A stretch of 64,000 nucleotides of DNA from Naegleria gruberi (lineage: Eukaryota), in NCBI GenBank assembly GCA_000004985.1, contig GG738936.1; one strand, 5' to 3'. A program made the translations under genes and the position numbers. Shown here piece by piece: positions 32,943 through 42,999 of the stretch; the first letter of the stretch is position 1; every line of letters begins with the position of its first letter. The notes beneath the pieces are model-generated. The model had not been told where the DNA came from and did no database searches. It saw only the letters and a program-made list of their open reading frames with translations.

Positions 32943-34121
32943 TTACTGATTTGGTGTCGATTCACAAGTTGTAATACTTATTGTAATCTCACAACATGCA
33001 GGAGTTTTCTCAACATTATTTTTCTCATCCTCACTTTCTCTTCTGATGAAATAACTCATTAATATTCTATTTCTCAAATACGAAACTAAACACAACAAGA
33101 GAAACATAATTCCAATGACCAAATAAACAACTACAAGAAACAATAGAAATGTCCACCAAGGATTTCTATAATAATTAATAATACTATATGGAAATTTTGA
33201 TACCCATCTCGATTTCATACTAATTAAAAACCAAATATAGTATAAACTAGGAAAGCACATTAATGTGACAATGTGCCACTTTCTTATTTGAAAATTAGAC
33301 AAGAGAAAGTCAATTAAGCTTAATAATCCTGTAATACCATGATAAGAAACAGTACTTTCCCAAATTTGATGTCGAATAACTTATTAGAAACTAAATACTT
33401 ACACACAATCTAAAACATCCTCCTGAACACTTGCTCTTCCAACCCAATATCCAATCGAAACAACCAATGAAGCAACCAAATTTAATTCGCCTACAAACCA
33501 CAACAATATTGAAATTCCTCTCCAGCCAATTTTGATCCACTTGTCAAATTTAGAATAATTCTTTAAAAGGAAATTTGTTTCATACGAAAACCTAATCGAG
33601 AAATTTCTAAAGAATACTAAGTAGACGAAACCTAAAAATGTCTGCAGTGAGAAATAAGTGGTGAAAACCATAATCATGTGGTGTGTGAAAAAAGTTGAGT
33701 TTTTCAGATAGATATTTTCGAATAGATCTGGTCTAAGAGATGGATAGATGGAAAGGGTGGTAACAATCCATGTAAAAGTCATTATTCGAAAGATGTATAA
33801 AGCTATGGTTAGATACTTGTTGTATCCGAAAGATTCGAATACAAATTGCGAAGGGTTTCGTAAACTAATTAATTAGCTTACCATTGTAATATCTACGTAC
33901 CCATCAAGAATTAAATCTGCTCTTTTAATTTCCTCCGTTTCTTGTTGATATTTAGCAACTCTGTTTTGTCTTTGTGTGAAAACTATTCCTTTCACAATGA
34001 AGAAACCTAACGAAAGTATGAAAATAAAGGAGAATGTCATGATACTTTGGATCAACAGCACAGAACTAATCAGATCAGCACCTTGTGTTTCAGAAAGTGA
34101 AGGTAAACTTCTTGCATCCAT
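32943..34121 (-). CDS. multi-pass membrane protein, unknown family; exons 34121-33882, 33815-33403, 33354-32943
   Basis: three hydrophobic-segment-rich blocks joined in frame by GTAAGC/GTAAGT donors and AG acceptors; at least 7 predicted TM helices; the third acceptor is ambiguous. Confidence 0.5.
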
Positions 34122-34366: not shown

Positions 34367-36925
34367 TTACATCCAATACATATTACCATCCTGTGCAGAA
34401 CCTGATTTCACTGACTGTTCATCATCAGTTGATGAGCTTGTTCCTGGTTGAGCAATTTCAAATCCAAGAGAAAAAGAACTGGAAGTTGAGCTCATTGTGG
34501 ATTCTCTGCTTGATGGTTTCTCTGAAAGAATAGTTTTGATATTTTCCATGAATGATGTGTAGGCCAAATTGATGAGAATTAACTTGACAATGACTTCAAT
34601 CTTTTCAAATACATCAAAGTGAGCGAGGGAGGAAATTGCCTTCTTGGCCTCAGTGTTAAATGTTTGAATGGAGGAGCGAGGGAAATCAGAAAGATTGGAA
34701 ATATTGTTTTGGTCAATTAGGTAGCTCTCTACAATCTTTTTGTGAAGTTTGGCTCTTTGTTGAGGTTTGTTTGTGAGCTTGTAAGTTTCCAATTTTTCAA
34801 TCATTGCCATGTATTTAGAGGCATTAGGAATTGGGCACAATTGTAAGAATCTTGATTTGAGATAGTCATCACTGATAATTCTATTAAAATCGAGAATTTT
34901 CTTCATTTCTTCTAATTTGGTTTCTTGATCTTGGAGTGATTGTTGAAGTTCATTTTCTTCACTCAAATTGATGGCAACAATTACAAAGGCATCACTAACT
35001 TGGCCTTCTTTAATTAGCAATCTGACATTGTAAACTTTCAATTGGACTGGTAATTGTTTGGATGTTATGGAGAAGATGTTTGTTTTCCATATACCATTAT
35101 CGCTAATTTCAGCAAATTTCTGTAGCAACTCATCGAGAGGTGTTTCCTTAAAGAATTTGTCAATGGTATCATGGAGATAGTTGACTTGTTGCTGATTTTC
35201 ATTACTGTCCACAAGCTTATTATCAAAATAACTATTAGTATTGACAATCAATCCAGTACTCTTTTCAACAATGGCAATAAACTCATTAATACTATTCATG
35301 ATGCAACGATTGGATTGTTCTTGAATTGAAGTTCTTTCAAGCATTTCTTGCATTGTATCCATGTCACTAACTAGCTTTTCTTGATTCTTTTTCAAACTGG
35401 CCAACATTTGATTAATCTTTGATGAGAGAGTACCAATTTCGTCGTGACCCAATTGAGGAATTGTCTTGTTAAAATCATTTCCACTCTCATAGAAATCTCT
35501 AACAGATTTGGATAATTTTAAAATTCTTCTCAATACTGATGATTCAATAAAGATGACAACGCCAGCTGACAATACCAATACGAAGAATGTCATGACAAAC
35601 CACACGACAAGGAAGGAAGCCATACCAACTTGGAATGAACTTCTTTGAATATCAGTTCTAAACACTACTGTCTTTCCACCTGTAATGTCATTGTACATTT
35701 GATAGGCAGCCATTCTTTCATTTTGAGAACCAGCTGAGAAGGAAGAGAACTTGTTAGTAATGGTCTTGGAGCATTGTCTTCCATGGAGAATATAATCCGA
35801 GTTACTGGAAGATTTTCCAATATCAATAACCTTCACAAGAGATGCAGCATCATTTGTCCAATCAGAGTAAACATTTGTACTCGAAATATTGGTTGGTATC
35901 CATTCACTAGTGATAGCATCAAGAGAATCTGAGATTGCATTAGATGTTGACAACTTGAAAGCACTTGTCTCATATTCACTTTTCAGGTCATAGGTCGTAA
36001 CACAAAATTGAGTCCTCTCTGAGATGTCGAGCAGATAATCATAGGTATTATACTTGGCAAAGGTGAGCATACCAAATGATTCCAGTGAGTCATATCCTTG
36101 AATTGGCATTGCATTCACAAGAAGTACGTTTGATAAAATTGAGGAATAGTTGGAAACTGCTTGTTGTGATGTTTCACTTGTTGCCAATTCTGAAAGTTTC
36201 TTACTTGGTATCATTAATCCAATGTGTCTAGTCGATGGATTTTCCAAATTATTGATAAAGAATTTCCTATATTCATTCGATTGACCATCAACAGTTTCTT
36301 GATCTAGATTAGTCAACTCAGATGGTAATCCTTCAATTGATACACCTTTAAAACAATGAATTCCTCTTAGCATTGTTCCATTTAAATAGTAAAATAAGGC
36401 CATATTTACGTTAACTCTATTCAAATAATCACAATTCATATAATCTGACATGTATTGGTCAATTGTCTCTTGTGAAGCTCCATTTACCAACTCAGTTGTC
36501 GAATCAAACGATCCATATTCAAACGTACGATCTGACAATAGCTTTAAATCATCAAACAATGCTCTTGAAACTCTCCTAGAAGATTGAGTCGATTCCACAC
36601 GTTCAACATTATGAAATATCAAAAAGAATGAGGTCAATAAAATTGCCAAACAAAAGCACACCAACAATATGAACATGACAACCAACACTGAAATTGTCTT
36701 TAAACGTAATGATGAATGTTTCTTGAATATATTCTCTTGTTGCTGCGTCGTATCTGGTGCATTGTATTTAAAAGTTAAATTTGCAATTTCTTTCAACTCT
36801 ATTTTCATTTCTTTTAATTCTTCCGAATTGCTATTATTATTATTAATGGATGGAGAATGCTGAAGAGATGTTGCGGAAGATGATGGAATTGATTCAACAA
36901 CTGAAAGGTTGAGTTGTTGCGTCAT
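34367..36925 (-). CDS. receptor-like protein: N-terminal TM, large extracellular domain, second TM, coiled-coil linker and C-terminal RGS domain
   Basis: TM1 LVVMFILLVCFCLAILLTSFFLIF; TM2 MASFLVVWFVMTFFVLVLSAGVVIFI followed by a HAMP/coiled-coil-like segment; C-terminal RGS-like block SRFLQLCPIPNASKYMAMIEKLETYK...AKLHKKIVESYLIDQ...FDVFEKIEVIVKLILINLAYTSFMEN. Confidence 0.7.
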   Translation of the reverse strand: MTQQLNLSVVESIPSSSATSLQHSPSINNNNSNSEELKEMKIELKEIANLTFKYNAPDTTQQQENIFKKHSSLRLKTISVLVVMFILLVCFCLAILLTSFFLIFHNVERVESTQSSRRVSRALFDDLKLLSDRTFEYGSFDSTTELVNGASQETIDQYMSDYMNCDYLNRVNVNMALFYYLNGTMLRGIHCFKGVSIEGLPSELTNLDQETVDGQSNEYRKFFINNLENPSTRHIGLMIPSKKLSELATSETSQQAVSNYSSILSNVLLVNAMPIQGYDSLESFGMLTFAKYNTYDYLLDISERTQFCVTTYDLKSEYETSAFKLSTSNAISDSLDAITSEWIPTNISSTNVYSDWTNDAASLVKVIDIGKSSSNSDYILHGRQCSKTITNKFSSFSAGSQNERMAAYQMYNDITGGKTVVFRTDIQRSSFQVGMASFLVVWFVMTFFVLVLSAGVVIFIESSVLRRILKLSKSVRDFYESGNDFNKTIPQLGHDEIGTLSSKINQMLASLKKNQEKLVSDMDTMQEMLERTSIQEQSNRCIMNSINEFIAIVEKSTGLIVNTNSYFDNKLVDSNENQQQVNYLHDTIDKFFKETPLDELLQKFAEISDNGIWKTNIFSITSKQLPVQLKVYNVRLLIKEGQVSDAFVIVAINLSEENELQQSLQDQETKLEEMKKILDFNRIISDDYLKSRFLQLCPIPNASKYMAMIEKLETYKLTNKPQQRAKLHKKIVESYLIDQNNISNLSDFPRSSIQTFNTEAKKAISSLAHFDVFEKIEVIVKLILINLAYTSFMENIKTILSEKPSSRESTMSSTSSSFSLGFEIAQPGTSSSTDDEQSVKSGSAQDGNMYWM

Positions 36926-37258: not shown

Positions 37259-38683
37259 TTATTTACGTTTGAAAATGTTAAATAGAGTGTTAGGTCTTTT
37301 TCTAACTTCTTTGGATTGTGGTGGTTCAGATGATGATGGAGGGAATGATTTAGAATTATTGTTAACTGTTTGTTGTTTCTTTTGAGATCCGTTATCTAAA
37401 TCTGAATTGAGTGATGAGATTTTGTAACCAGTGTTTTGTTCATGTTGTGAGATGATTAAACCAATAGATTGAGATCTTCTCTTTTCATTAATGACTGGAG
37501 AGCTAGTGGAAATGGAATTTGATCTATTTCTTATTTTGTTTCCAATATTTTTGAAAGAGTCAACCAATCTAAGACTAGCTCTTCTATTTTCCAAATTTGG
37601 AGTACTGGATGAGGCAGAGTTATTCGTTCTTGAAGATGAAATCACCAAACTGGACCTTCTCTGTTTTGTTTCAATATTTGCTGTAACGCTCTTTGGCCTT
37701 ATTATTGATTTTGCAAGTTCTTTCACATCCTCAAAGAAGGTTAGCACATTCTCCCCAGTAACACTCGAACATTCATAAAACTTGATATCACTTCCAATAA
37801 CATTCCTATGTGAGAGAATATGTGACTCTGAAACTGTTCTATCATCCTCGAGGTCTGTCTTGACTCCTACTGCCATTATCTTTCGTTGCTGACCTCCTCT
37901 AGGAGTTCTTGGAGAGGTCATTAATAGAGCTGGACTCTGAGGGGATCCAAATTTGAAACTAGCAAGTGGATCAGCATGGGTTTCGTCTGAAGGCAGATTT
38001 GAGGTTATCTTTGATAATTGTTCATGGTAAAGGACAAGAGATTCGAATGAAGGCAGCTCTGTTACATCGTAAACCATAATCACTAAATGGGCTCTAGCCA
38101 CAGTTTTTACAAACTCCAAATCACTATCCATCATGTTTCTATTTCTTATATCTGAAAAGGAATGAGAAAGTAAGAAAAAGTTTAGTTTTACATTTCTTTC
38201 TCCATTTTCCACCTCAATCACCTTTGAATAGTCTGCTCTCAATTCATCATTCTCCTTCCTGAACGAATGTAATGATGAGAAGGATGAACTCCTCTCCGAT
38301 AGAACCGATTGATCATCATTGGCTGTCCAAGTAGAAGCCTCATCATCTAATTCTTCTTCATCTCCCACCTGACGAATTGAATTCATAAATGTAGAAGGAT
38401 TGTAGTAACCATTAATCATGTAAGAAACCAGTGATTTCTTACCAACTCCTCTTGTACCTAACACACAAATATTGTAGGCTTGAGGATTTTGATTTGATAC
38501 ATTGTTGGCTGAATTATTATTGGTTGTATTCGAAGTCGTTACGGCACTCGAAGAGAGCAGATCTGATGAAGAACCACCTCCCAATAACATTGAGGGTATA
38601 ATATTCAATAGACTACTCCTTCTCCTCCTGATGAGTGTAGCAGAAGAGGTTGTGTCATGGTTATTATTATTGTTCATCATCAT
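37259..38683 (-). CDS. divergent Ras-superfamily small GTPase with poly-Asn N-terminal and Ser-rich C-terminal extensions
   Basis: G1 LGTRGVGKKS, G4-like GVKTDLED, G5-like ECSSVTGENV; first ATG at 38683 (track ORF begins at TTG 38764). Confidence 0.65.
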   Translation of the reverse strand: MMMNNNNNHDTTSSATLIRRRRSSLLNIIPSMLLGGGSSSDLLSSSAVTTSNTTNNNSANNVSNQNPQAYNICVLGTRGVGKKSLVSYMINGYYNPSTFMNSIRQVGDEEELDDEASTWTANDDQSVLSERSSSFSSLHSFRKENDELRADYSKVIEVENGERNVKLNFFLLSHSFSDIRNRNMMDSDLEFVKTVARAHLVIMVYDVTELPSFESLVLYHEQLSKITSNLPSDETHADPLASFKFGSPQSPALLMTSPRTPRGGQQRKIMAVGVKTDLEDDRTVSESHILSHRNVIGSDIKFYECSSVTGENVLTFFEDVKELAKSIIRPKSVTANIETKQRRSSLVISSSRTNNSASSSTPNLENRRASLRLVDSFKNIGNKIRNRSNSISTSSPVINEKRRSQSIGLIISQHEQNTGYKISSLNSDLDNGSQKKQQTVNNNSKSFPPSSSEPPQSKEVRKRPNTLFNIFKRK

Positions 38684-38843
38684 TTCGTTTTTTTTAAAAT
38701 GAAATTGTGTGTGCTTGGTTGAGTAAGGAAAAAGGGCGGGCTGTAGATATGTGATGAAAGACAATGTGTGGCTATTGGAATAGAGGAAGATTAAATGACT
38801 ACAATCTACGATGACTATTGAGAATTGAGAGATTGAAATGTTT

Positions 38844-40602
38844 TTAATACTTTTTCAATTTCTTGGCGGCTGTTGTTGGAGTGTAAGTAAAATCTGACCT
38901 AATAGCAATAAATCTGTTTTGATAGGAAATTACTGGGTTGACCAAGGTAAGACCTTGAAGAGATGGAAGTGGGAATCCTCTCTTTGCAAGAGTATTACCA
39001 ATTGGAACAACTCCATATTCGAAAATTAAATCAACAATAGTAGAAACCAATTGAACGTCCAATGGGCCAATATTTGAATAAGCAAGTGTGACATTAGAAC
39101 TCTTATAAGTAAGGGTTCCAGTGATATTGGAGGCAACAATAGAAGCTTCCAAATCCATAACAGCATTGAAATTCAAAGCAAAGGCATTGACTGGTCCAGT
39201 TGGTTGAACAACTTGGAAAATGGCTTGAGCAATGAGGTTAACCTCAGCACCATTAGCTGGAGAAATGGAAATAGTTGGTGGACTAGCAGTGGTAAAGTCA
39301 ATTTGCATTTCAAGACCTGGATATTTTGCGTATAATTGAGGAAGGAAATATTGCAAATTAGTAGTGTTGAAAAGCCATTGGAAAGAAGATGGGAAAATGT
39401 GTTGAGTGAGTAAATAATTGAACAATCCAGCTTCGTTAAAAGCAAATCCAGCAGTATTGAGGGTATAATCACTGACAAAGATTTCAGCCATCTTATCAGC
39501 TCCAAGAGAGTTTGGCATTGAAGGAGTTGGTCCTGCATAACCTGGTTGATTCTTAACAAATAATCTACCAGCAGTTCCAACAATGAGAGAATTTGAAGTA
39601 TTGTAGACAACACTTTGCAAAGTACTATCAAATAAAACACCCATTGATAAGATTGGAATTTGGAGATTGAGAGTTGCCAATTCCTTACTCAAGACAGTAT
39701 TAATAGCTCCAGCAACTTGAGTATTGATGGCGTTTTGTGCACTTTGTTCAATAGAGTCTCTGAAATTGTTGAGGAAAACATTGTACAACCAACTTGCTCC
39801 ACCATGTAATTTCAAATTAAAGCTAGTGAATTTGGCATTGAAATTTCCAAGAACGACATTGAAGTGAGATTCATCAATAATCACAATTTGAGCTGTAAGA
39901 GTGATATCAACTATGTGGTGTTAGAAACTATTCTAAACTAATTACATACTTGCAACAGAAGCATCAGCACTACCTGAATCACTAATATGTGGCCATGAAT
40001 CCTCTAATATTGTTTGTAAAATTAATATTCATCCAAACTAATAATACTAACCTCTGTAATGCCAATTCTGATCAAAATATTATTAATTAATTAATGTCAA
40101 TAAAAACTTACACAATGAAGACTAGCTTGAGCATTGCTAATAGTAATTTGGAGAGCAGTTGGACCAACAACAATTGATGGAATAGAGATATCAAAATTAC
40201 TCAAAGTAATTTGAGAAATGGTGGCAGTTAAATGTCCGATTGGTGTATCTGTAATAATAAATTTCAACATTAAATAACACTTCCTCACAACATACCAACT
40301 CTAGTTGTAACATCAGGAATAGCAATAGTTGATGTGATTTGTTTTTGAATAAATGGCGTTAATTGATTAGACATGTAATTCAAAGCACGTTGTTGTGTAT
40401 TAACAGAAATTCCAGATGGCAAAACCATAGGTTGTTTAACAGAAGAATTCTTTTTTAATTTATGAATAGAGATTGGCTTTAATGATTCCGAGCCACCAAT
40501 CATCATCATCAAGACAACAATGATCAAAGTTGTTCCAACCAAGAACAAGCTAGTGTTGTTATTCATATTTCTCTTCATTTTTTTCTTCGCTGATTTTTTC
40601 AT
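38844..40602 (-). CDS. BPI/LBP/CETP-family lipid-binding protein with signal peptide; exons 40602-40296, 40248-40112, 40001-39950, 39892-38844
   Basis: N-terminal BPI-type motif LNYMSNQLTPFIQKQITSTIAIPDVTTRV then TPIGHLTATISQITLSNFDISIPSIVVGP; long two-barrel body; exon lengths sum to a multiple of 3 (1545 nt); GTATGT/GTAAGT donors. Confidence 0.7.
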
Positions 40603-40806
40603 TGTTGGAATTTTCAGTAAAGCCTTACCAGGTTTTTTGAAGATGCACACAACGCAGCCTTCACAACTTGAAAAAAAAAGCCTTTATATTGTTGCTGATA
40701 ATTTTTGTTTCCATTGGCAGTGGCACAATGTAAGGCTGAAAAATATATTGAGGGGCGATTAAGTTTCTTTTTCGGAACACTTGATTACCTAGAAATTAAC
40801 AAAAAA

Positions 40807-42999
40807 ATGAGCAAAATTAAACCTGCAGACATGTTGGAGGCATCACTACAACAAATTAAAAATGTTGTTGGTGTTGGTTCATCATCGGAGAGTGTTGGAA
40901 AGATTGTGGTGAATGTTAGCAAGATTTTGGAGGAAAATTCTGCCTATTTGGGGATTACTACATTTTACGAGAGTAACAAGTTGACATCTTCGCAGTTTGG
41001 ATCAAGTTGTAGGAATTTTCAGAAATGTTTGGATAGAGTGGAACATTTGGAATTGAGTGGAAATCAGTTGGAGTATTTTATTGTTAATGAAAAGTTGACA
41101 AGTGACTCAAAGTATTTTGTTAGCCAATTTGCAAAGAGTTTGACATTCTTGGATTTATCTAATAACATGATCAAGAATTTTCCTATTGAATGTTTGAGTA
41201 TTCCATTAAAAATATTAAATTTGGAAAATAATTTAATTACGAGTTTGGAAAATCTAGTGAAAGAGTTGAATGAGAACAAATCGGAAATGAAATTGTTGAA
41301 TTGTCTTGAGAGTTTAAATATTTCCAAAAATTTAATTCAACATTTTCCATTCTACATAATTGTTAAAAAGTTCAAAAAGGTTGATAGTATTGACCTAGGT
41401 GAAAATCCATTACAATCTCTTTCTATTAACATGTTGAAGGAACAGAAAAAGGGAATATTTGGAAGTAACGCATCATCTTCTGATAAAAACGAAGACATCA
41501 AGATATTGACTGACTATTCAGATGCTTCTATTACAAGTGTAAAGATGAACTCTATTGACCTTGAAACTATTAGAAAGAGGCTCGAGTTGAAAACTCCATT
41601 ATTATCCAACAAAACCAATTCAATTTTTAATTTATTTAAAAAGAAAATATCAGATGATATTTCATTCGATAACAGCAAGGATTTCTTCCCTGTGGAGTTA
41701 TTTGATCTTCCAAATATACAACATCTAGACCTTTCCAAAAACAAACATTTAAATTATTCCAAGATGAAACAACTTGTACTCAGTCCATCCATAACATCAC
41801 TTAATCTGTCCAATTGTCAATTAGATGAATCTGTTTCTAGAATATTCAAATCAATTTTAAACAATTCTATCAGGAAGTTGATATTACACAACAATAATAT
41901 CAAGGAAATTTTAATAGAAGATTTTCCAAATATCATTTCAATTAATTTATCCAATAATATTGAATACTACAAAAAGGATGAGAATATTTATAACATACTA
42001 TCGAATGTTAATCCAAAAATTGAAGAATTAACATTGAAACGAGTTTTTAAGAACGAAGAAGGATACAAAGACCTATTAAATCTGAGTCTTATAAGAAATA
42101 ATCTAGAAGTGCCCAAAATTGGAATTTCCTTATCCAAGTTTTCCAGTATCAGATCTTTGACACTCAGTGGATTATTTCTTTCATCAATTCCTTTAGATAT
42201 TAACCAATCAAATATGCCTAACATTGAATTTTTGGATCTTTCAGAAAATGAAATTGGAGATTTTTCTAGTAATTTGTTAATGCTCACAGAATTGAAGTCG
42301 ATAGACCTCTCATTCAATAATATTTCAACAATAGATGTAGATGATGAAATGTGCAACTTGACCAAGCTTACATCATTGGACCTTTCGCATAATAATCTCA
42401 CAGAATTTCCAATTGATCTAGTTCTATTATTACCCTCTATAGATATTCTTTCTCTTGAGTACAATACTAGTAATTTGAAAACAGCAAGAGAAGACAAGAA
42501 TGATATATTCAACCAATGGATGAAGGATCATAGTTCTGTGAAAATTAAACGAATGCTCATTGAACCAAGTTTAATTCTTGAGAGATTATATCTGGGAGGA
42601 AATGGTTCTGCCCAAAGTAAACACAATATGAAATTACTGGGCATTACTCACGTATTGAATGTTGCTGAGGGTTTAATAGCTCCATATCCTTTCGATTTCA
42701 AATATAAGAAAGTTGAACTTTCTGATACGTTAGGCGAGGATTTACTTCCGCACATAGATGCTTGTGTAAAATTTATAGAAGAGGCCATTGATTCACAAGG
42801 AACCATTCTTGTGCATTGCAAGGCAGGAGTAAGTCGTTCTGCCTCAATGGTAATTGCTTATGTAATGAAGAAATTCAAACTCTCTTTAGATGAAGCAACT
42901 CAAATGGTAAAGGAGAAGCGTTCACAGATTTGTCCTAATGGAGCATTTGTAAAACAATTGGAAGATTATGGACGTTTATTGAATCGTGAATCACATTAG
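40807..42999 (+). CDS. leucine-rich-repeat protein with C-terminal dual-specificity protein phosphatase domain
   Basis: about 15 LRRs (LxxLxLSxNxI), then DSP catalytic loop VHCKAGVSRSASMVIAYVMK and the general-acid region; first ATG at 40807 (track starts at TTG 40705). Confidence 0.8.
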   Translation: MSKIKPADMLEASLQQIKNVVGVGSSSESVGKIVVNVSKILEENSAYLGITTFYESNKLTSSQFGSSCRNFQKCLDRVEHLELSGNQLEYFIVNEKLTSDSKYFVSQFAKSLTFLDLSNNMIKNFPIECLSIPLKILNLENNLITSLENLVKELNENKSEMKLLNCLESLNISKNLIQHFPFYIIVKKFKKVDSIDLGENPLQSLSINMLKEQKKGIFGSNASSSDKNEDIKILTDYSDASITSVKMNSIDLETIRKRLELKTPLLSNKTNSIFNLFKKKISDDISFDNSKDFFPVELFDLPNIQHLDLSKNKHLNYSKMKQLVLSPSITSLNLSNCQLDESVSRIFKSILNNSIRKLILHNNNIKEILIEDFPNIISINLSNNIEYYKKDENIYNILSNVNPKIEELTLKRVFKNEEGYKDLLNLSLIRNNLEVPKIGISLSKFSSIRSLTLSGLFLSSIPLDINQSNMPNIEFLDLSENEIGDFSSNLLMLTELKSIDLSFNNISTIDVDDEMCNLTKLTSLDLSHNNLTEFPIDLVLLLPSIDILSLEYNTSNLKTAREDKNDIFNQWMKDHSSVKIKRMLIEPSLILERLYLGGNGSAQSKHNMKLLGITHVLNVAEGLIAPYPFDFKYKKVELSDTLGEDLLPHIDACVKFIEEAIDSQGTILVHCKAGVSRSASMVIAYVMKKFKLSLDEATQMVKEKRSQICPNGAFVKQLEDYGRLLNRESH

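Follow-up and report, generated by a model that had tools for sequence, protein, structure and literature searches.

We analysed a window of 64,000 nucleotides from Naegleria gruberi contig GG738936.1 (all positions below are those of this whole stretch), which carries on its minus strand, at 34367..36925, the gene for a membrane receptor that joins a CHASE4-HAMP-PAS sensor cassette to a C-terminal RGS-fold domain. The gene is one unbroken, single-exon open reading frame (ORF) of 852 codons followed by a stop codon at 34367-34369; residue numbers below are those of this ORF. Its product is identical (100%) to an 813-residue N. gruberi 'predicted protein', which the NCBI model starts at Met40. 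Stop codons are frequent at the G+C content of the window (~34%, uniform along its length), and an ORF of this size is therefore not a chance feature. The frame runs 39 codons upstream of the database start, to another ATG (36809-36925, minus strand); this upstream stretch aligns loosely (TSL...NNNN) with the N-terminus of a homologue from Willaertia and is of low complexity, leaving the true start uncertain.

The initial annotation of this DNA had described an 852-residue protein with two transmembrane (TM) segments, an ectodomain of ~330 residues, a coiled-coil or HAMP-like linker and an RGS-like C-terminus. All of these elements are present at the positions it gave, and the complete layout is TM segment, CHASE4 ectodomain, TM segment, HAMP domain, PAS domain, helical linker and RGS domain (every feature lying, like the gene, on the minus strand). 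The N-terminal cytoplasmic tail (residues 1–75; 36701..36925) is rich in Ser, Asn and Gln and predicted to be disordered (model confidence, or pLDDT, <50 at residues 1–58), and becomes rich in Lys and Arg just before TM1 (residues ~76–103; 36617..36700), where hydropathy peaks at 3.31 and the structure model contains a continuous helix spanning residues 73–138. The CHASE4-type sensor (residues 104–433; 35627..36616) is followed by TM2 (residues 434–461; 35543..35626), as delimited by hydropathy. At the other end of the protein, the C-terminal tail (residues 798–852; 34370..34534) is rich in Ser and Thr and again predicted to be disordered (pLDDT <50 at residues 803–852).

A Kyte-Doolittle hydropathy scan detected exactly two TM segments (~77–103 and 434–460), separated by a loop of ~330 residues; the protein thus lacks a seven-TM N-terminal domain of the AtRGS1 type. 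Because the chain crosses the membrane twice, its two ends must share one side, and several features suggest that this side is the cytoplasm. The N-terminal flank of TM1 and the C-terminal flank of TM2 are richer in Lys and Arg (4 and 5 residues) than the corresponding loop-side flanks (3 and 2 residues), as the positive-inside rule would predict; the HAMP domain starts directly after TM2, as it does in bacterial receptors; and CHASE4 is an extracytoplasmic type of sensor. In addition, a pair of ectodomain cysteines (Cys308 and Cys385) is invariant in all 31 aligned relatives, consistent with a structural disulfide in an oxidising compartment and hence with an extracytoplasmic loop. (The members of a second ectodomain pair, C165 and C191, are each present in 10 family members.) The predicted topology accordingly places the RGS domain in the cytosol at the C-terminus of a membrane receptor, as the initial annotation had assumed. 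The protein is a type-II-like two-TM receptor and, by analogy with bacterial receptors of similar construction, is probably dimeric.

Within the loop between TM1 and TM2, Pfam recognises a CHASE4 domain (PF05228, a member of the Cache clan) at residues 122–310, with a score of 28.3 bits against a cut-off of 26.2. The structure model displays the fold of this class, with a stalk formed by a long helix, a PAS-like subdomain far from the membrane and, close to it, a second subdomain that is enlarged here and contains the invariant Cys308/Cys385 pair together with conserved residues W356, R383, R404, R423, D425 and R428. The ectodomain by itself found no match among PDB sequences; its relationship to solved CHASE4 structures is seen only with a profile of the family described below, which matches the solved sensor domain of a diguanylate cyclase (9p50_A) at 3e-7, and by comparison of folds.

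The HAMP domain (PF00672; residues 462–512; 35390..35542) scores 30.6 bits against a Pfam cut-off of 25 and contains the canonical motif P490..G493-x-D-E496-I-G. Three of its residues (E496, N505 and L508) are at least 90% conserved among 65 relatives, and the family profile matches the Af1503 HAMP domain in the PDB at 2e-4. The linker of the initial annotation is therefore in part a true HAMP domain, while its remainder comprises a PAS domain (residues 527–654; 34964..35347) and then a helix of ~30 residues. Pfam reports no PAS match for the window protein at E<=10, although it does so for 24 of the 65 relatives. A family profile of the inter-domain region matches the PAS domains of PpsR, CitA and PASK (PAS-kinase), with a best E-value of 6e-5, and the model of this region shows an N-cap helix and a five-stranded antiparallel sheet with flanking helices, as is typical of the fold. 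By its fold, a PAS domain sits between the HAMP and RGS domains. The helical linker that follows (residues 655–679; 34889..34963) forms part of a continuous helix in the model (residues 655–685).

The C-terminal domain (residues 680–797; 34535..34888) possesses an RGS fold. Pfam aligns residues 679–795 with positions 1–111 of the 117 in its RGS model (PF00615), at E=0.0024 and 18.7 bits; HAMP and CHASE4 exceed their cut-offs in this Pfam check of the protein, whereas the RGS match falls short of its own (23.9). Profile comparison supports the fold independently: a two-sequence profile matches RGS5, RGS8 and RGS4 in the PDB, and the family profile matches RGS2, RGS18 and RGS4 at ~1e-12. The domain was modelled with confidence as an all-helical RGS bundle (pLDDT 91), and a Foldseek search with the isolated C-terminal model returned RGS or RH domains as 49 of the 50 best matches. 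Its hydrophobic core is kept as well, with F680, Y715 and R724 invariant in the family and I731, L736 and F773 nearly so. The RGS-like C-terminus that had been noted originally is therefore borne out as to its fold, but its sequence lies below the Pfam cut-off and, as described below, it has lost the residues that contact Gα.

The protein belongs to a family of similarly constructed receptors. A word-indexed search produced a single homologue, a Willaertia magna protein of 35% identity with precomputed Pfam annotations for HAMP, RGS and CHASE4; the same kind of search returned the query's own database entry alone when given the family alignment, and nothing when given the RGS region by itself. 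An exhaustive HMMER search with a two-sequence profile, in contrast, recovered 52 cluster representatives at E<1e-30, and the family came to light only in this way. Among the best 65 relatives Pfam matched CHASE4 in 47, RGS in 44 (best 5e-28), HAMP in 44 and PAS in 24, and a module-by-module scan found the TM, CHASE4, TM, HAMP, PAS and RGS elements to be collinear in ~40 clusters. The named N. gruberi members number seven, including the window gene; the others are XP_002669406, XP_002668985, XP_002671054, XP_002670055, XP_002670222 and XP_002670289, the last of which is without the TM and CHASE4 parts. Further named members come from N. lovaniensis, W. magna (e.g. ABK040_009326) and Acrasis kona (e.g. 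KAL0487670), and the remainder from metagenome contigs; every named source is heterolobosean. (The initial annotation had suggested comparison with RGS-domain receptors of dictyostelids, which we dropped once the 100% match to a Naegleria protein identified the gene as heterolobosean.) The database labels of these proteins read 'predicted protein' or 'X domain-containing protein', except that three Acrasis entries bear generic RGS designations (regulator of G-protein signaling, RGS21 and RGS7).

The window protein displays all of the features that define the family: the collinear modules, the inter-module spacings given below (34 residues, 49 or 42, and 28 or 21) and the C308/C385 pair. Where it departs from its relatives is in the RGS domain, since theirs pass the Pfam threshold at 40–66 bits and in the great majority retain the Gα-contacting residues S85, E87, N88, N128, D163 and R167 (RGS4 numbering). 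A fragment of 170 residues (P0049) is 80% identical to residues 59–147 of the window protein, covering the stretch before TM1, TM1 itself and the start of the ectodomain; the gene thus has a close orthologue in a different sample. Neither a second family member nor a tandem duplicate of the gene was found within the 64-kb window. One further relative (P0058, 595 residues) combines HAMP and PAS domains with two RGS domains in tandem.

The spacing of the modules is conserved across the family to a degree that suggests mechanical coupling between them. In 31 aligned members, the distance from R428 to E461 (across TM2) is 34 residues without exception. Between HAMP residue E496 and PAS residue N544, 21 members have a distance of 49 residues and eight one of 42; the distance from PAS residue N653 to RGS residue F680 is 28 residues (four heptads) in 23 and 21 residues in two; the window protein has the 49- and 28-residue forms. 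The linker lengths are thus either fixed or differ by exactly seven residues, corresponding to one heptad, as would be expected of dimeric sensor proteins whose signalling helices run on as uninterrupted coiled coils. Such quantised lengths fit a dimeric, ligand-regulated receptor GAP in which the modules are coupled through helices.

We aligned the RGS domains of the family with that of RGS4, whose numbering in the alignment reproduces the published key residues. Nearly all family members keep the RGS4 residues E83, S85, E87, N88, N128, D163 and R167; the corresponding residues of the window protein are P, A, K, Y, S or N (see below), L and S, respectively. The specific replacements are S85 to A702, E87 to K704, N88 to Y705, D163 to L787, S164 to A788 and R167 to S791, such that the SEEN motif has become ASKY (A702-S-K704-Y705). 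Both blocks of substitution are ungapped and anchored by invariant residues (F693 and C697 for one, I779-V-K..F792-M for the other), and the assignments are therefore robust. The equivalent of Asn128 is ambiguous. Pairwise alignment had placed S751 at this position, an assignment that we downgraded when the family alignment placed N744 there instead; N744 lies in the sequence SNLS, under a family motif LN[VIL]S, and is followed by a six-residue insertion. The critical contacts for GTPase-activating protein (GAP) activity have been listed in a review as Asn128-Gln204, Asn88-Thr182 and Asp163-Thr182 (PMC8252600). At least two of these three are gone from the window protein (Asn88 to Tyr705 and Asp163 to Leu787), along with most of the Thr182 pocket. 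Taken as a set, the switch-contacting residues S85, E87, N88, N128, D163, S164 and R167 are thus not preserved, and GAP activity by the canonical mechanism appears doubtful on the basis of these substitutions.

The divergence is specific to the output domain. When each of 22 full-length members was scored against a profile of the others, the window protein ranked second for CHASE4, eighth for TM2-HAMP and twelfth for PAS, and last for RGS (53.7 bits against a median of 118.6). Its ectodomain is 28–42% identical to those of its paralogues, equal to or above their identity among themselves. The RGS domain, in comparison, is the best conserved module of the other paralogues (39–60% identity), while that of the window protein shares only 17–32% identity with theirs. 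Three other family members (P0021, P0031 and P0033) are likewise degenerate at the contact positions, indicating that this loss has recurred within the family. P0021 and a protein with a canonical RGS box (P0022) may reside on one 62,762-bp JGI metagenome contig, which would constitute a second case of an active and a degenerate paralogue occurring together.

Bosch et al. 2022 (PMC9283941) reported that the Gα subunits of N. fowleri undergo rapid nucleotide exchange and so activate themselves, such that the GAP step becomes the controlled one, and that RGS domains from seven-TM RGS (7TM-RGS) proteins of that organism use the canonical switch-I interface to accelerate the Gα GTPase. The same genome encodes 28 7TM-RGS proteins and 79 other RGS proteins (PMC9283941). 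The GAP is the regulated step in plants as well (PMC3386157). By extrapolation from N. fowleri, the Gα subunits of N. gruberi may be self-activating too. The family as a whole is then probably a ligand-gated off-switch for G proteins, and would add a further class of receptor GAP to that formed by the 7TM-RGS proteins. Binding of a ligand to the CHASE4 ectodomain could be relayed through TM2 and HAMP, the heptad-registered helices and PAS, and alter the membrane presentation of the paired RGS domains, thereby tuning their GAP activity on Gα·GTP. The proposal in the initial annotation that the window gene encodes such an off-switch is thus the natural reading for the family, with its canonical RGS boxes, and is doubtful for the window protein itself, in which the contact residues are replaced.

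For the window protein, we lean, with a modest degree of confidence, towards an RH-like paralogue with impaired GAP function, whose role would be to sense ligand and modulate or scaffold signalling, and not to switch Gα off directly. Such a protein might heterodimerise with competent paralogues, titrate ligand or recruit another partner. Several points weigh against this interpretation. No full-length orthologue was recovered by our searches; two scans of metagenomes, one using the RGS region and one using P0049, returned nothing. Dimerisation and heterodimerisation are proposed purely by analogy to bacterial HAMP and PAS receptors. The intact ORF, the confident fold (pLDDT 91) and the conserved linkers show that the gene is under selection, and do not specify for what purpose. 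The equivalent of Asn128 may survive, as N744. Finally, RGS domains can engage Gα through non-canonical interfaces, as exemplified by GRK2 and mammalian RGS-RhoGEFs. Together with the lineage-specific expansion of Gα subunits in Naegleria (PMC3971589), this means that the domain could have been re-targeted as a GAP.

The most serious alternative, which we nonetheless regard as unlikely, develops this last point: the protein would be a working ligand-gated receptor GAP whose RGS domain still acts on some Gα of Naegleria, by way of an interface that has co-evolved or is non-canonical. The fold is intact and confidently predicted, the sensor, the transmission modules and the linker lengths are evidently constrained, N744 may stand in for Asn128, and Gα has diversified in a lineage-specific manner in Naegleria (PMC3971589). 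Such a mechanism would have to accommodate the replacement of Asn88 and Asp163 (two of three critical contacts) by Tyr and Leu, and of Ser85, Glu87, Ser164 and Arg167 as well, in a domain that is an outlier where RGS is otherwise the best conserved module. Moreover, those N. fowleri RGS-Gα pairs tested to date use the canonical interface (PMC9283941).

Less probable still is that the gene is a decaying, functionless duplicate, in which the output domain drifted first and the rest is to follow. Its RGS score, the lowest in the family, would be explained in this manner, as would the finding of no full-length orthologue in N. lovaniensis, Willaertia and Acrasis, where the best matches reach ~35–37% identity. 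Against this stand the unbroken 852-codon ORF at 34% G+C, a CHASE4 module that ranks second of 22, the retained RGS core (F680, Y715, R724, I731, L736 and F773) and linkers at canonical heptad lengths; the 80%-identical P0049, a separate entry, further implies that an orthologue has been maintained. A bacterial contaminant, or a chimeric mis-assembly of a bacterial sensor gene with a eukaryotic RGS gene, might be suspected given that the CHASE4-HAMP-PAS cassette is typically bacterial, but it is effectively refuted by the recurrence of the same continuous layout in ~40 clusters from Heterolobosea (Naegleria, Willaertia and Acrasis) and metagenomes, by the conserved junction lengths, by the uniform base composition of the window and by the eukaryotic character of the neighbouring genes (a Ras-family GTPase, a leucine-rich-repeat dual-specificity phosphatase and a BPI-like protein).

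The receptor and its family can be compared with several known systems. The 7TM-RGS receptor GAPs (AtRGS1 of Arabidopsis and the 28 N. fowleri proteins; PMC9283941) resemble it in having a C-terminal cytosolic RGS domain on an integral membrane receptor, and occur where Gα subunits self-activate and the GAP step is regulated. In place of their seven-helix bundle, the window family has a two-TM CHASE4 input and a HAMP-PAS relay, which would imply dimeric signalling by piston or rotation, and the window protein differs from them additionally in its lost Gα-contact residues. Its heterolobosean paralogues (e.g. XP_002669406, XP_002668985, XP_002671054 and XP_002670055 of N. gruberi, ABK040_009326 of W. 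magna and KAL0487670 of A. kona) share its module order, linker lengths and Cys pair, and keep a canonical RGS box. Bacterial CHASE4 receptors, which include PA2072/IsmP of P. aeruginosa (8wct), a cyclase (P0064), a CHASE4-HAMP-SpoIIE protein (P0063) and CHASE4 histidine kinases, differ in their output, RGS being a eukaryotic module; the ectodomain of the window family is also ~120 residues longer than theirs, with an enlarged membrane-proximal subdomain and the conserved, disulfide-like Cys pair. RH domains devoid of canonical GAP function are known from GRK2, axin and SNX13/SNX25, whereas here an RH-like domain forms the terminal output of a transmembrane sensor.

The closest relatives of the sensor cassette outside the RGS family are two eukaryotic CHASE4-HAMP-adenylate cyclases (P0051 and P0048), which have the cassette in common with it and end in a class III cyclase, with neither PAS nor RGS. 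They are divergently transcribed at one locus (L001, 3735-7974), on a metagenome contig of eukaryotic character (ORC5_C, and a retroelement with zf-CCHC and integrase). Bacterial proteins too are among the next-best relatives of the sensor and HAMP part: CHASE4-HAMP-SpoIIE, CHASE4 histidine kinases and a CHASE4-HAMP-PAS-adenylate cyclase (P0064), which is encoded beside an alanine racemase gene and is 29% identical over 135 residues across TM2 and HAMP. These bacterial and eukaryotic relatives indicate that the cassette is modular. By sequence comparison, it appears to be a mobile bacterial input module that has been joined in heteroloboseans to cyclase and RGS outputs, with horizontal acquisition followed by domain shuffling as its likely history. 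We can offer a wider reading only tentatively, and with less confidence than we place in the GAP-impaired assignment: that heteroloboseans acquired a bacterial CHASE4-HAMP-PAS cassette horizontally and, in a second class of receptor GAPs, placed RGS domains under its allosteric control by way of heptad-registered helices, and that GAP-dead pseudo-RGS paralogues, the window gene among them, have arisen recurrently to serve as ligand-sensing modulators by heterodimerising with active paralogues or recruiting a new partner, much as pseudokinases do in families of receptor kinases. A protein of 1893 residues from a Logan assembly (P0061) illustrates a different and unusual use of CHASE4: CHASE4 occurs four times in tandem, with a TM helix on either side of every copy (eight in total), ahead of HisKA, HATPase and receiver domains in what is a multi-sensor hybrid histidine kinase.

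The proteins of the family were already present in databases with automatic domain labels, and what is new is their recognition and interpretation rather than the sequences. According to Upadhyay et al. (2016), just one Naegleria protein, an adenylate cyclase, has a Cache domain, and the family evidently went unremarked in that work. Neither HAMP nor CHASE is mentioned in the text and supplements of Bosch et al. 2022 (PMC9283941). In the searchable literature, CHASE4 together with RGS returned only unrelated work on cytokinin sensing in Sinorhizobium meliloti, HAMP-domain together with RGS-domain only unrelated work on an Aspergillus kinase, and Acrasis kona together with RGS nothing; a description of the CHASE4-HAMP-PAS-RGS layout was not found in that literature, which excluded the likeliest earlier source (Anantharaman et al. 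2011). Receptor-RGS fusions are already known, as are eukaryotic sensors with HAMP domains; the variant in which RGS is the output of a CHASE4-HAMP-PAS cassette is new within the literature searched.

Control by 7TM-RGS receptors is the accepted means of regulating self-activating G proteins in plants and, according to recent work, in Naegleria. If our interpretation of the family is correct, a bacterial two-TM sensor with a HAMP-PAS relay would be a second solution to the same problem, and we found no earlier example in which a HAMP/PAS transmission module controls a GTPase-activating domain in place of a kinase, a cyclase or a methyl-accepting domain. It raises the question of how rotation or piston-like movement of helices might exert allosteric control over RGS activity, for which chimeras with well-understood bacterial receptors would be feasible, and of which extracellular cues are conveyed by G proteins in heteroloboseans, among them relatives of the pathogen N. 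fowleri. The window gene, probably a natural 'output-dead' variant, would provide a useful control and may illustrate how pseudo-enzymes evolve among receptors.

Several neighbouring genes were identified in the window. The next gene upstream (37259-38764, minus strand), 334 bp from the receptor gene and on the same strand, encodes a protein of ~500 residues with a Ras-family GTPase domain. Its P-loop reads GTRGVGKKS, and the Pfam Ras match (E=1.5e-10) is confined to the C-terminal third of its model; long Ser/Asn-rich insertions appear to split the domain, and the protein has long low-complexity tails, making it an atypical small GTPase. Immediately downstream of the receptor gene, three consecutive and very hydrophobic ORFs of 119, 127 and 82 residues (32943-34121, minus strand), one of which was scanned and gave no Pfam match, are probably exons of one intron-split gene for a multi-pass membrane protein. 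Farther upstream lies an ORF (38844-39884, minus strand) for a BPI/LBP/CETP C-terminal lipid-binding domain (E=1e-33), here in a free-living amoeba, and on the opposite strand a 764-residue ORF (40705-42999, plus strand) encodes both leucine-rich repeats and, at its C-terminal end, a dual-specificity phosphatase domain (DSPc, E=1e-34).

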